Shown here in pieces: positions 1-4,091 of a stretch of 37,558 bases of DNA. The stretch lies in IMG/VR virus record IMGVR_UViG_2698536484_000025; one strand, 5' to 3'. Both the position numbers and the translations under genes were made by a program. The notes beneath the pieces are model-generated. The model was not told where the DNA came from. It saw nothing but the letters and a program-made list of their open reading frames with translations, and made no database searches. The stretch is from a virus. Taxonomy: Duplodnaviria; Heunggongvirae; Uroviricota; Caudoviricetes. Within the stretch, counting starts at the first letter, position 1, and every line of letters begins with the position of its first letter.

Positions 1-1065
1 AATTCACTGTCGGCGAAGGTAAGTTGATGACTCATGATGAACCCTGTTCCATGGCTCCAGATGACAAACATGATCTCATATCAGGGACTTGTTCGCACCT
101 TCCTTAGATGAGATCATATTTGGCAAAAGCCAAACATACAGAACCAGTGACACAATCAAACAGAGGACGGCATAAATATATAACCGCACCCATAGCGTTC
201 GACATTTGTTCGGATTGTTCTGCATCCTCTCACTCCATTATTTAACGAATAAAAAAGCTGCGGTGCCGGGTGCCTCCCGGTGTCCTTTGGCTGGTTATCC
301 ACCGTGGACGGGGAAACAAGGAGAAATGAATGGACTGATATAACCATTTCCCCGCGTGCGCTTAGCCGCATTCACCGCAACGGAAAGAGCATTCTTGGTG
401 GACCTGTAGATTGGGATATGAACCCGTTACAGGAGAATGCTCTTACCTGTTACGTGCTCCGTTTCGTGGAGCTAACGGCGGGTGATCAGACCGCACCAGA
501 CTGGACTTATTTCAGCGTTATGCTCATGCCAGAGAATCAAACTGTGATGGTCGGTGCTGAACTCCGACACAGGGTTGTAGCAAGCCCCGCAAAGCGCGCA
601 CTACTGTAGTTGCGGCACATCAGCCTGTGCATTCACCACAATGTTGAGAACACTGGTTGTCACGCTGCAACGCAACATTTATTCGTAGATTGGGATATGA
701 CCCCGTTACGCCAGTGTTCTCAACGTTGTAGTGCCGGTTACGGTTCCGGCCAGGCCTCTTCCTCAACGGGGTGTTCTCCATACGGACTACCGTTTATTGG
801 TCGTTCCTGCGGTTTATGTTGTGAAGCCAGATGCTTATCTTCTGGTTGCTTCAAAGAGCTGCACTTCATCACAACGGTAAGAGCACTCGATGCATTTAAG
901 CCAAGCCCCATAAGGGAGAATGCCCTTACCTGTTGTGTTGTGATGACCGGTGCTGATCTCCGGCTTGCGGTTATTTCAGACTCTCACGGGCGTTTATTTG
1001 CCCCGCCGAACAGCTCTTTTCCGCAATAGCTGCAATGTCTTTCGCGCATCAGCCTGCGCATTCAT

Positions 1066-1153
1066 CACAACGGTAAGGGTACTTCGTAGGGATTCGAACC
1101 CTCTGCCAAGCACGGCGATCTCCGACGTCACAAAATACCCTTACCTGTTGTGT
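1066..1153 (-). other. tRNA-like remnant: T-arm-like hairpin enclosed by a 16-bp inverted repeat
   Basis: Plus strand 1088-1100 gggattcgaaccc is the complement of a tRNA T-arm (GGGTTCGAATCCC), but no complementary acceptor 5' strand exists. Flanked by inverted repeat cacaacggtaagggta (1066-1081) / tacccttacctgttgtg (1137-1153). Confidence 0.3.
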
Positions 1154-1229
1154 TGGTGCCGGTTAACGGACTCGAACCGCTGACATCCTGCTTACAAGGC
1201 AGGCGCTCTACCAACTGAGCTAAACCGGC
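1154..1229 (-). tRNA. tRNA-Thr, anticodon UGU, CCA encoded
   Basis: Minus strand folds as GCCGGTT-TA-GCTC-AGTTGGTA-GAGC-G-CCTGC-CTTGTAA-GCAGG-ATGTC-AGCGG-TTCGAGT-CCGTT-AACCGGC-A-CCA; 7-bp acceptor stem, anticodon loop CU-UGU-AA. Confidence 0.85.
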
Positions 1230-1233
1230 AATT

Positions 1234-1320
1234 TGGTGGGGAGTGATGGAGTCGAACCACCCGAGTCGCAATGACAGTAGATTTACAGTCTACCCCGCTA
1301 CCCCTACGGACTAACTCCCC
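1234..1320 (-). tRNA. class II tRNA with long variable arm, anticodon GUA (Tyr-type), CCA encoded
   Basis: Minus strand GGGGAGT...GTAGA-CTGTAAA-TCTAC-(15-nt variable arm TGTCATTGCGACTCG)-GGTGG-TTCGACT-CCATC-ACTCCCC-A-CCA. Acceptor stem perfect; D-arm slightly non-canonical (3-4 extra nt before D-stem). Confidence 0.7.
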
Positions 1321-1325
1321 TAAAT

Positions 1326-1402
1326 TGGCGATGGTGGGTGGATTCGAACCACCGACCGACAGCTTAGAAGGCTGCTGCTCTATCCTACTGAGCTACACCA
1401 CC
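1326..1402 (-). tRNA. tRNA-Arg, anticodon UCU (reads AGA), CCA encoded
   Basis: Minus strand GGTGGTG-TA-GCTC-AGTAGGATA-GAGC-A-GCAGC-CTTCTAA-GCTGT-CGGTC-GGTGG-TTCGAAT-CCACC-CACCATC-G-CCA; canonical cloverleaf. Confidence 0.8.
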
Positions 1403-1591
1403 ACTGTGCCGGGTACGTCTCCGGCGAGGGCTTCCACCTCCGTATGCTTTTCGGCGCACCGCGCCCTGGCTGCAATTCAGTAACAGGGGATGCATAACCC
1501 TGGCTTCCAGCGTGATTAGCGCCTTCAGCATGACGGGATATACCCGTAACCAACAAACTTTCCCATATACCATCAAGCAATGGCTGTTACG

Positions 1592-1692
1592 CGGGAGGGA
1601 CGTAACAGGTAAGGGCGCTGACCAGAAAGACCTGACCCTTCTCATTCATCTGGTTAATCACACCAGCGCCCTTACCTGTTGTGCCTCCCCGT
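1592..1692. other. structured element: 17-bp perfect inverted repeat enclosing an inner 6-bp hairpin, carries the conserved motif CCCTTACCTGTTGTG
   Basis: aacaggtaagggcgctg (1600-1616) pairs with cagcgcccttacctgtt (1663-1679); inner hairpin accaga/tctggt; outer gggaggg/cctcccc partial pairing. Confidence 0.3.
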
Positions 1693-2065
1693 TCCCTAAT
1701 ACACAGACGGGGACACTCTGCGGTCGATTTTTTTGACGGGGGACGACTCATACCCCGTGGCATCTGGTTTCTTAGGCCGCTACCATCATCAGATCATCGT
1801 TTGCATTTACTTTAATGGTCAGTTTCTAAACCGCCGCAAAGTCGCTAACCATGACGAAAACCCTGAAAAAAACGCCCACCCGAAGATGGGCAAACTGGAA
1901 GCTCGTAACGCACTTCGGCGTTGCCACTTAGGCGCATGGTCAACCTGGCAACTCGGTGGTTTGTCTGGGAGGACTAGGCCCAGCCATGCTTACCGCCGCG
2001 CCTGTCGCGGCTAACAGCTAAATCGCTCTATAAATCACGATTCATTGAGGCGATATTACACTGAT

Positions 2066-2082
2066 AAATTTATTAGAGCAAT
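2066..2082 (-). promoter_or_regulatory. C1 repressor operator (17/17 match to consensus ATTGCTCTAATAAATTT on minus strand)
   Basis: Plus strand aaatttattagagcaat at 2066-2082, overlapping the dmt stop codon. Consensus is from memory of P1 C1 operators. Confidence 0.6.
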
Positions 2083-4091
2083 ATACCCAAAACGTCATGA
2101 GCTACACCTCGAGTGTCCCCCTTACAAGACACAGAACGTCTGGCAAAAAGATGTTCCACTCTGAAGCCACTGTCATGATAAAGCTCTCTGATGTTTGGCG
2201 CGCCACTGTTAGTAATGAGAACCTTTGCACCTCGACGATGAGCATCCGTCAACAGAGACACCAGGCGTTTTTGCTCTTCAAACTTAAAGTCATGACCGGA
2301 ATAGTTCGTGAATCCCTCTGTATTTGGAAGCGGTTCATACGGCGGATCGCAAAAGATGACATCTCCTTCTCCGGCAGCTTCAATCACCGCTGCAAAATCA
2401 CCGCATACAAACTCAGACCGCCCTTCCGCACCGAGGAAGGCTTCCATCTCCTGTAATGGGAAATACGGAGTTTTATACTTCCCATAACCGACATTGAACT
2501 CACCGGCCTGGTTGTAACGCGTCAATCCGTTAAAACAATGTCGGTTCAGGAACAAAAACGCCGCTGCGCGATGTAAATCATCATAGACTTGTTTGTTAAA
2601 CGCATTCCGTACTGCCAGGAATCCCTCCTGGGTGTTGTAGTCCTGGAAGAACCGATGTGCCAGAGTGATAAGTGAATGCGCCTCGCGTTGCAGAGTCTTG
2701 TAAAAGTTAATCAGGTCAGCATTCACATCATTTAGCAGATTTTCCTGGTATCCGGCATTCATGAAGACAGCTCCACCACCGACGAAAGGTTCAATCAGGC
2801 GCTTCCCTTCTGGCAAATAGCGAAAGATTTGTTCCAGAACACCAAATTTTCCACCAGCCCATTTGAATATGGACCGTTCGAATTCTGCCGCTGGTTTAAC
2901 TTTTCGCTCTTTTGTTTCACGCCCTTCATTCTGCCGACATGCAGCCTTGGTTATCCGCTCGCCAATCCAGCGCATTACTGGTATCGCCATACTATTGCCG
3001 ATCGCTTTGTAACGCGGTCCGTCAGCTGCAAGCATTGCAGCCTCTTCTTCGTTCAAATCAGGAGAGTTTTTGCGAAGGTATGCCAGTTCATCTGAAGAAA
3101 CTTTTTTACGCTTTTCCGTAGGGATCAATGTATGTCCATCAGGAAAACCTTGCAGCCTTTCACATTCGACAGGGGTAAGACGGCGCATTCTACCGTCGCC
3201 GAGCAATACAATTGGTGCTTCATGGTTACATGTCAAAGTTGGTGCCGAATTATCGGTTTTTATCTCAGCCCCTCCTTGCCCATGTGCCATGGCAACTATG
3301 TTTGTATCATCGCAAGATCTGATAGCGATGTCTGAAGTATATCTGGTAGTTTCCTTCCCCTCGCCTCTGCTCGGCGCAATATTCCGGCGCACGCCTTCGA
3401 ACTCAAAAAGTACCGTTGCGGGATCGAGGTCTGTTCGAGCACTTGCGACAACAAACACGCGTCGGCGTCGTTGTGCCACTCCGAAGTATTGGGCATCAAG
3501 GATTCTCCAGGCCACCTTTCGCTGCGGTCCATAAATACAACCACACTGCGGCCACTTTGGAACATGGCAACCGGTTTTGCCATCCCACCGCCAGAACGCG
3601 TTGCTTTTTCCTGATTCAGGTCGATCACCTGGTTCAAATGGCACATCTTCTCCAGCCAATCCAGCAAGGAAACATCCGAAGGCGTTATCTGCCGATGACA
3701 AGACTCCTGGGACATTTTCCCAGACGATAACGGCTGGTTTGAGAAATGACTCAGCCCGTTTGTCGTCAATTGCATTTGCAAGCTCCACATACTTTAAAGT
3801 TAGCGCGCCACGCTCATCATCAAGCCCACCACGTAATCCCGCGATACTGAATGCCTGACAAGGTGTTCCCCCGACGAGCACATCAGGGGATTCGATTTCC
3901 CCAGCCAGGACTTTTTTGGCAAGTTTTGTCATGTCGCCAAGGTTGGCGACATGGGGCCAGCGGTGCGCAAGAACGGCAGATGGAAAAGACTCGATTTCAG
4001 CAAACCACACCGGACGCATACCCAACGGTTCCCAGGCAATACTCGCGGCTTCAATTCCACTGCAAACAGATCCATAGCACAGCTCTTTCAC
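2073..4091 (-). CDS. dmt: bifunctional DNA methyltransferase: N-terminal C5-cytosine MTase fused to C-terminal Dam-like N6-adenine MTase
   Basis: 672-aa ORF. N-terminal half has C5-MTase motifs ([10 protein letters not shown] motif [16 protein letters not shown] motif IV, ENVPG motif [11 protein letters not shown] motif [17 protein letters not shown]). C-terminal half has Dam motifs FKWAGGK and DPPY. GTG start overlaps the hrdC stop (GTGA). Confidence 0.9.

Follow-up and report, generated by a model that had tools for sequence, protein, structure and literature searches.

The 37,558-nucleotide (nt) window analyzed here, IMG/VR virus record IMGVR_UViG_2698536484_000025, is a P1-like phage-plasmid, and the repeats that surround its tRNA cluster belong to a conserved family of RNA elements that is real and so far unannotated. 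In RNA form, the members read 5'-CACAAC-A-GGUAAGRGCAUUG-[15-95 nt variable cargo]-CAGUGCUCUUUCC-GUUGUG-3', usually followed by GUGAAU-GCGCAGGCUGAUGCGC (a small hairpin), and they form a helix of ∼22 bp composed of 6 bp, a bulged A, and 13 to 16 bp that include several G·U pairs and a conserved U·U, above which the variable cargo is displayed apically. We are highly confident that the elements are a conserved structured RNA specified by the minus strand. Five copies, designated A to E, are present in the window:

376-454, minus strand: element A, with its 5' arm at 454-438 (CGUAACAGGUAAGAGCA), a cargo that includes a shared 25-mer (430-406), and its 3' arm at 391-376
634-733, minus strand: element B, a divergent member with an 8-bp plus 14-bp stem (∼22 bp) of different sequence
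870-937, minus strand: element C, with the canonical scaffold and a 35-nt cargo
1066-1152, minus strand: element D, with the canonical scaffold, beginning 2 nt past the CCA of tRNA-Thr
1601-1683, minus strand: element E, with a 20-bp perfect stem in which the usual bulged A is paired, the first element downstream of a tag-like module

The original prediction had described these repeats as seen on the plus strand. Its 15-nt motif, CCCTTACCTGTTGTG, was found exactly at 923-937, 1138-1152, and 1669-1683 (plus strand), and a copy with two mismatches lies on the other strand at 1601-1615; 0.09 matches were expected in place of these 4, and none of 100 shuffles reached that number. The reported variant of the motif is present at 436-457, and the shared 25-mer, GTAGATTGGGATATGA(A/C)CCCGTTAC, was located at 406-430 and 685-709 (0 expected). 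The repeats are real, and the positions first assigned to them hold to within 2 to 4 nt; those of the 25-mer were off by 2 to 3 nt. Each copy of the motif does form one arm of an inverted repeat: 1604-1620 pairs with 1664-1680 at 17 of 17 positions and can be extended to 1601-1620/1664-1683, and further inverted repeats comprise 1072-1087/1130-1145 and 382-395/434-447. The partner arms constitute a direct-repeat family of their own in four copies, TTCAYCRCAAYGG.AAGRGCA. The arms of a fifth hairpin, 634-656/711-733, differ in sequence, and the original prediction had only half recognized it. Because the RNA is on the minus strand, what the motif shows is the 5' arm of the RNA in reverse complement, and its earlier designation as the 3' arm must be reversed.

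A covariance model (CM), R1, was built from 38 non-P1 members and included the 6-bp plus 13-bp stem, the bulged A, and the 3' GUGAAU with its hairpin. For elements D, A, C, and B, the matches of the model were confined to the minus strand or were far stronger there (E values of 1e-18 to 2.5e-7, with plus-strand scores of at most 30.6 bits), and no match besides A to E was obtained over the 37.5-kb window. The minus-strand scores for D, A, C, and B were 81.9 bits (E = 1e-18), 68.1 bits (E = 2.4e-15; 22.2 bits on the plus strand), 61.1 bits (E = 1.3e-13), and 35.4 bits (E = 2.5e-7; minus strand only), respectively. Element E was nearly strand-symmetric, with 28.2 bits on the minus and 30.6 bits on the plus strand; in its P1 variants, the stem includes G·U and U·U and is followed by a U-run. 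All five hairpins folded far better than their shuffled counterparts on the minus strand (z of -4.5 to -6.8), and the minus-strand folds of A to D were better than the plus-strand folds by 5 to 10 kcal/mol.

Comparison of the members provided the evidence for conservation at the level of structure. Among 39 distinct scaffolds 93.9% of the stem cells pair, with a similar result for the full alignment, and 5 to 7 pairs exhibit double-sided changes (7 of 19 pairs on the 39 scaffolds). The covariation score was reached by 0 of 500 shuffles, only ∼33 to 60% of the cells pair in slid-register controls, and G·U combinations outnumber A·C combinations in the stem cells by 52 to 7. D-type relatives have three covarying pairs, and the stem substitutions in relatives of B are G·U only, producing wobble pairs on the minus strand alone. 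Element B and the copy in phage mEp460 keep the ∼22-bp helix despite entirely different sequence. Element B (fold of -49.2 kcal/mol, z of -5.8) also has the same 25-mer cargo motif as A (709-685) and the same 3' flank of GUGAAU plus hairpin (630-615); its Rfam matches were to miRNA-precursor models only. The tRNAs called within 700 nt of 23 distinct members were all co-oriented with the element. The retention of the repeats in related and unrelated phages, the covarying stems, and the lack of a coding signature in the overlapping open reading frames (ORFs) 280-609 and 610-1029 agree with the earlier view of a structured non-coding RNA or processing-signal family that does not encode protein.

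The suggestion that the repeats are tRNA-derived fragments was correct only in part. ARAGORN and Rfam identified three genuine tRNAs only in this region and called no element a tRNA; in a search of the elements against Rfam (E ≤ 10), the best tRNA-type match was tRNA-Sec on element D (16.2 bits, E = 3.2), accompanied by a weak mascRNA match. The conserved stem scaffold is not a tRNA remnant, whereas the interior of element D and some cargos of other phages are tRNA-like. In D, a 7-bp acceptor-like stem continues the scaffold and is combined with a T-arm, AGGGUUCGAAUCCCU, at 1102-1088, and the interior motif GGUUCGAAUCC is T-arm-like. The 25-mer (GGGUUCAUAUCCC), which had been likened to a degenerate T-arm, is instead the cargo motif of A and B, and no model supports the resemblance.

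Approximately 60 distinct members were gathered by pattern scans and BLAST. At least 171 phage records contain the family (lambdoid, P22-like, and P1-like phages, siphoviruses of 46-48 kb, Ackermannviridae of ∼158 kb, and others), a range well outside the P1-like genomes that had escaped the original prediction. The 3' arm module is present in 628 of 5,426 complete Escherichia coli genomes (∼12%) and is annotated in none of them. No family in Rfam 15 covers the element, no member was found in the K-12 prophages Qin and DLP12, and literature searches with the element sequences and for phage RNAs resembling transfer-messenger RNA (tmRNA) yielded nothing relevant. Phage lambda possesses a member at 44787-44862 (J02459; 988-1063 of our locus L169). 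The annotated orf-64 (44621-44815), whose 3' end overlaps this lambda copy, may for that reason not be a real gene. Identical 76-nt matches were encountered on low-coverage contigs of ∼48.4 kb (L132, L133, L136, L138, L140, and others) in Pseudomonas, Bacillus-like, Bacteroidota, actinomycete, and other assemblies; they reflect contamination of public genomes with lambda DNA.

Without exception, the elements occupy non-coding parts of regulated phage transcripts and are sense-oriented there. In the late leader of lambda and of Qin-like prophages, the element begins 6 nt past tR', the terminator of the 6S RNA; in mEp460 and Stx2a_WGPS2 it resides in the ∼700-nt pL leader; IME207, ZC2, and Magnus have it in small tRNA units, upstream of the tRNAs; and in P1-like genomes its site is the ban leader. 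Thirteen of 59 distinct members begin directly after a U-run, and a start 2 nt past the CCA of tRNA-Thr was seen in at least 12 P1-like variants. The region of the window corresponds to that of P1-like phages (Punavirus: RCS47, P1, P7, D6, and SJ46) with 92-96% identity. The repeats are flanked by dmt (2073-4091, minus strand) and the end of an IS5 copy and share the minus strand with three tRNAs. According to the P1 record, the stretch from dmt to ban is the C1-controlled ban operon, which runs from P1ban/Op72 on the strand equivalent to the minus strand of the window in the order "dicF-like region," trnA, trnT, tciABC, trnI, and ban. The region of the elements sits between P1ban/Op72 and tciA-ban in P1, and the predicted ORFs upl and plp are annotated there on the strand opposite the ban operon. 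On the minus strand of the window, the order is a short hairpin/terminator, the tag-like module, E, the three tRNAs, D, C, B, A, and an STnc100-like terminator domain. The features that accompany the elements are as follows:

1690-1863 (approximate start), minus strand: tag-like module, with the frame ANDDLMMVAA* at 1804-1772 and a conserved 5' part at 1863-1834 (GGGUUUUCGUCAUGGUUAGCGACUUUGCGG)
1154-1402, minus strand: tRNA-Thr(UGU), tRNA-Tyr(GUA), and tRNA-Arg(UCU), called by ARAGORN, with Rfam tRNA scores of 74.9, 41.9, and 70 bits, respectively
940-1065, minus strand: spacer domain between D and C, consisting of GUGAUGAAU, hairpin hp1 (1059-1044), a variable part, and hairpin hp2 plus CAUCAC (964-940)
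259-379, minus strand: STnc100/PasD-like terminal domain directly after element A, with a fold of -53.3 kcal/mol (z of -3.1)

We propose that the elements act as processing hairpins of the RNase III type, at which leader/tRNA transcripts would be divided into stable RNAs and the cargo hairpin set free, a proposal that we judge to be evenly poised between right and wrong. According to this scheme, temperate and virulent enterobacterial phages would have placed a modular RNA hairpin in long non-coding leader/tRNA transcripts. In the P1-like replicon, minus-strand transcription of the array would start at the C1-repressed ban promoter, Pban, as we infer from the P1 annotation, and we take the three tRNAs to be co-transcribed with the elements. 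The conserved helix would be a substrate of the host RNase III, and staggered cuts in the stems would separate the tRNAs, the STnc100-like small RNA (sRNA) domains, and the cargo hairpins from one another, while also detaching these modules from the downstream mRNA (tciABC-ban in P1 and the late genes in lambda). Each cargo would be freed as a small hairpin RNA with paired ends, or as a tRNA-like product in the case of D-type cargos, and might then carry out a function of its own.

Besides the evidence given above for a structured, non-coding RNA embedded in transcripts, the proposal draws on the following: a helix of about two turns is kept across unrelated sequences, its size is one that RNase III accommodates, processing sites have been reported in lambda late RNA, and the lambda late leader has a single candidate helix. 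RNase III accommodates ∼22 bp, and a specific base-pair pattern marks its in vivo substrates (PMC6212723), a requirement that could explain the conserved sequence of the stem. The stems measured 19 to 23 bp in all five elements and in lambda, and ∼20 to 23 bp in the canonical, B-, E-, and mEp460-type members, despite their sequence differences. Judging from its title as cited in PMC7547250, Daniels et al. 1988 (Virology 167:568) deals with sites of RNase III processing in the Q-dependent late transcript of lambda. In the lambda late leader, the element is the only helix of at least ∼20 bp besides the terminator hairpin of tR'. The classical RNase III sites (lambda late leader, lambda N leader, sib, and the T7 R sites) likewise are non-coding hairpins of about two turns located between units of a polycistronic phage transcript. 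One of these sites, the lambda late leader, holds the bona fide family member described above, in which the mapped lambda sites may lie, whereas the others have no sequence in common with the family. The kind of element is already known, namely a phage leader processing hairpin; distinct from the classical sites are the conserved scaffold with interchangeable apical cargo, the tandem arrays, the linkage to tRNAs, and the spread over many phage types. What appears to be new is the scaffold-plus-cargo design, together with its wide distribution and the company it keeps with tRNAs, STnc100-like domains, and the tag-like module.

Several points weigh against processing by RNase III. The global minimum free energy fold of the lambda leader does not contain the hairpin, and an alternative pairing, the stem that closes the spacer domain, competes with the basal 6 bp of the elements. 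Most known RNase III substrates show less sequence conservation in the stem; the stronger conservation here could instead be due to a sequence-specific protein, recent horizontal spread, or recombinational homogenization. Some genomes contain B/A hybrid copies with non-complementary arms, indicating that not every copy is maintained. Published RNase III maps of K-12 are of no help, as its Qin and DLP12 prophages lack the element.

The variable part of the elements raises a different explanation, in which the apical cargos are the functional entities (as tRNA-like modules or as regulatory or decoy RNAs, for example decoys for tRNA-targeting defense nucleases or tRNA-binding proteins) and the stem only stabilizes and presents them, with no need for RNase III. 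T-arm-like hairpins (GGUUCGAAUCC, GAGUUCGACUCUC, and GGUUCGAUUCC) are present in about one-quarter of the distinct cargos, far above chance, and the cargo in phage Magnus combines a type-II tRNA D-loop (GGAAAUUGGUAGAC) with a T-arm. The same types of cargo recur across scaffold contexts, and the A/B cargo motif reappears in mEp460 within a stem of unrelated sequence; the cargo of element C recurs in two non-P1 contigs (L047 and L070). The cargos are, however, 15 to 95 nt in length and mostly unrelated to one another, most are without common features, and one member has only a 15-nt loop. No cargo attained any Rfam threshold, the invariant T-arm of D is without covariation, and RNAalifold favors another fold for it. 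We consider this explanation rather unlikely. The arrangement resembles that of the bacterial Y RNA YrlA, in which, as in element D and the Magnus cargo, a tRNA-like module that includes a T-arm sits at the apex of a long basal stem. The stems, however, are unrelated in sequence, an rsr gene is absent from the surroundings, and most cargos of the family are not tRNA-like. The YrlA model (RF02553) matched none of the elements at E ≤ 10, its sole match being a true tRNA. The tRNA-miRNA encoded RNAs of murine herpesvirus 68 and pri-miRNA hairpins, in which tRNA-like units are linked to ∼22-bp hairpins and excised by a double-stranded RNA-specific or tRNA-processing nuclease, offer an analogy only; the organisms and enzymes are unrelated, and there is no homology.

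Comparison of copy number among the P1-like genomes, as the original prediction had advised, revealed that modules are lost or fused and that their number varies. The arms and flanks might be DNA linkers for the homologous shuffling of tRNA and sRNA cassettes, with hairpin potential as a by-product. Deletions and fusions in the P1-like genomes fall exactly between repeats (P1 itself has the D cargo joined to the C flank), B/A hybrids are joined inside the 25-mer, mosaic boundaries with other phages coincide with element edges, and the tRNAs beside the elements vary (Asn/Thr, Asn/Tyr/Thr, and Arg/Tyr/Thr). Recombination between the repeats clearly occurs, as seen in the P1 D/C fusion, the B/A hybrids, and the variation in copy number. 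It explains the exchange of cassettes but not the signatures at the RNA level: handles for recombination need no inverted repeats, and this model does not predict the compensatory changes, the one-strand preponderance of G·U over A·C (52:7), the constant ∼22-bp helix in variants of unrelated sequence, or the strict co-orientation. As an account of the family it is distinctly unlikely. With regard to the tRNAs themselves, the sets are Thr/Tyr/Arg(UCU) in the window, Asn/Thr in P1, and Asn/Tyr/Thr in Ro157c2, and because they differ among P1-like genomes, tRNA cassettes have evidently been swapped at this locus. The Tyr-Arg tRNA pair of the window is ∼84% identical to tRNAs of rV5-like and other virulent phages.

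The tag-like module upstream of element E suggests yet another role. Its frame reads AAAU-GCA AAC GAU GAU CUG AUG AUG GUA GCG GCC UAA, lies in the stretch annotated as "dicF-like" in P1, and has its stop 88 nt before element E. The module was detected in 318 phage records, including P1, HK620, and Vi1-like and N4-like phages. The 130 instances of the frame comprise 27 nucleotide variants and 17 peptides, all of exactly 10 codons plus a stop (TAA or TAG); the last codon is GCC, GCT, GCG, or GCA, and every third codon position varies, in the manner of a coding sequence. The length of an AUG frame that overlaps it is not conserved. In ∼100 of the 130 instances, the next element follows the stop at a set distance, either 78-79 or 86-88 nt. 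Like tmRNA (SsrA), the module offers a resume-codon context and a 10-codon tag, AN[DE][DEN]xx[LM]x[AV]A*, comparable to enterobacterial SsrA tags, and its 5' part resembles the 5' region of tmRNA; in addition, some cargos of the family look like a tRNA-like domain without an anticodon arm. A phage tmRNA-like apparatus can be envisioned, in which the long helix would be structural, like P2 or the pseudoknot hairpins of tmRNA, and the tRNA-like cargos would provide the tRNA-like domain that works with the upstream tag. The Rfam tmRNA matches to the module were weak, however, with scores of 24-26 bits that are all under the gathering score of 47. ARAGORN detected no tmRNA, canonical or permuted, in 173 sequences, and neither ARAGORN (173 sequences) nor Rfam found a tRNA-like domain for the module. 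In contrast to tmRNA, the module has no evident pseudoknot ring, and neither a tRNA-like domain ending in a free CCA nor an acceptor end bearing CCA and G3·U70 could be detected; most members, including those of lambda and the Qin-like prophages as well as A to D in the window, have no tag module nearby. A split acceptor formed by GUUUUCG in the 5' part of the module and a distant CGGGAAC was considered and rejected, since the 3' piece is the end of an ordinary tRNA-Met, which in ZC2 belongs to an Arg/Met fusion. We regard a tmRNA-like apparatus as very unlikely. The ZC2 fusion (L172, 2612-2690) is a tRNA-like sequence without an acceptor stem in which the 5' part of tRNA-Arg(UCU) is fused to the 3' end of tRNA-Met; both tRNAs are intact in relatives of ZC2.

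A broader conjecture would make the hairpins the joints of an unrecognized, horizontally mobile "stable-RNA operon" of enterobacterial phages that carries tRNAs, tRNA-like cargos, STnc100/PasD domains, and a translated tmRNA-like tag template; P1 and many other phages would then encode a non-canonical trans-translation/tagging RNA with the helix and the tRNA-like cargos as its parts. We put this forward as an unlikely, speculative reading.

Mobile DNA of the type of miniature inverted-repeat transposable elements, in which terminal inverted repeats surround a variable cargo and transposase acts in trans, is highly improbable. The imperfect terminal inverted repeats of 17-20 bp and the occurrence in many unrelated phage backbones with sharp boundaries would suit such an element, but the flanks lack a target-site duplication, position and orientation are always tied to transcripts or tRNAs, the G·U bias is confined to one strand, and no transposase is associated. 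Scarcely credible is the view that the plus strand encodes proteins Upl and Plp as annotated in P1 and that the repeats are incidental: although ORFs 280-609 and 610-1029 are open and PHROG families exist (only because P1-like annotations carry them), no Pfam family is matched, third codon positions hold only 3 of 16 variable sites, the upl frame is broken by 1-nt indels in 5 of 9 sequence variants, the ORFs are composed of repeated hairpin arms, their modules are gained and lost among relatives, and several annotators do not call them. We conclude that upl and plp are probably not genes, and the same probably applies to the end of lambda orf-64 and to the Magnus ORFs of 30-40 amino acids. Two further candidate identities were discarded. 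Local alignment of the arms to the rrnH operon, as possible rRNA mimics (e.g., of the 16S 3' region), was no better than for shuffles (p of 0.06-0.9), and a hammerhead-like CUGAUG...GAAA in the 3' flank leaves no room for stem II and gave no Rfam ribozyme matches.

The stretches between elements fold as domains closed by GUUGUGRUG/CAYCACAAC, each with two small hairpins. The spacer domain at 940-1065, which is STnc100-like in architecture, is closed by GUUGUGAUG/CAUCACAAC in competition with the basal 6 bp of the adjoining hairpins, and a stretch 95-97% identical to it is found in lambdoid pL leaders and after the element in Qin-like prophages. STnc100 and PasD are Hfq-bound sRNAs of lambdoid prophages that adjoin Q and lysis genes (RF02076; bioRxiv 10.64898/2026.05.13.724894). 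Their core (a UGGUG...CACCA closing stem, GAAU, a small hairpin, and a CCGGG...CCCGG hairpin) has the layout of the domains that follow each element, but the STnc100 model does not cover the stem-loop elements, and most spacer domains score below its gathering threshold. For the terminal domain at 259-379 (minus strand), the Rfam STnc100 model scored 37.8 bits (E = 4e-6), below the gathering score of 47; the relatives L171 and L150 exceeded that score (52.9 and 102 bits, respectively), with STnc100 above gathering beside elements in phage Magnus and a Klebsiella plasmid. The closing stem and U-run of the terminal domain (∼265-245) look like a terminator of the non-coding array in the predicted fold. 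STnc100 was rejected as a general partner of the elements, the gathering threshold having been reached in only 1 of 18 further loci. In L029 (∼1957-1996), and also in L095, L121, and L030, a 40-nt stretch of the domain that follows the element resembles 16S rRNA helix 11 (nt 243-282; 85% identity, E = 1e-4) and has a compensatory UA/AU swap in the stem.

The analysis gives a testable function and a name to a sequence that occurs in two of the most thoroughly studied phages (in the lambda late leader and the P1 ban leader) and in hundreds of others, where it currently either goes without annotation or is mistaken for short ORFs, as with upl, plp, the terminal part of lambda orf-64, and the tiny "hypothetical proteins" of Magnus. 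It also points to a way in which phages may pack tRNAs and Hfq-binding sRNAs (STnc100/PasD) in one transcript, release them, and exchange the cassettes. The scaffold-plus-cargo design could act as a natural cassette for small-RNA expression and processing, and the tag-like frame, if translated, would represent a new phage route into ribosome rescue.

Additional observations pertain to the two ends of the array. Bases 1-104 of the window are the end of an IS5 copy that is 95% identical to IS5B of E. coli K-12, and the 22 nt that follow also match the nmpC sequence flanking IS5B in prophage DLP12. The position of this IS5 end is occupied by tciABC in P1 and by a putative protease gene in RCS47. 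A simple sigma-70 scan of 100-2200 found no promoter. The remaining features near the start of the presumed transcript are as follows:

2053-2084: an AT-rich palindrome, ATATTACACTGATAAATTTATTAGAGCAATAT, at the position of the bivalent C1 operator Op72 and the Pban promoters of P1
1866-1891, minus strand: a strong, terminator-like hairpin (GCCCAUC-UUCG-GGUGGGC, then U7) that lies ∼160 nt downstream from where Pban is presumed to be

The hairpin at 1866-1891 sits in the "dicF-like region" of P1 and mirrors the pR'-6S-tR' arrangement that precedes the element in lambda.

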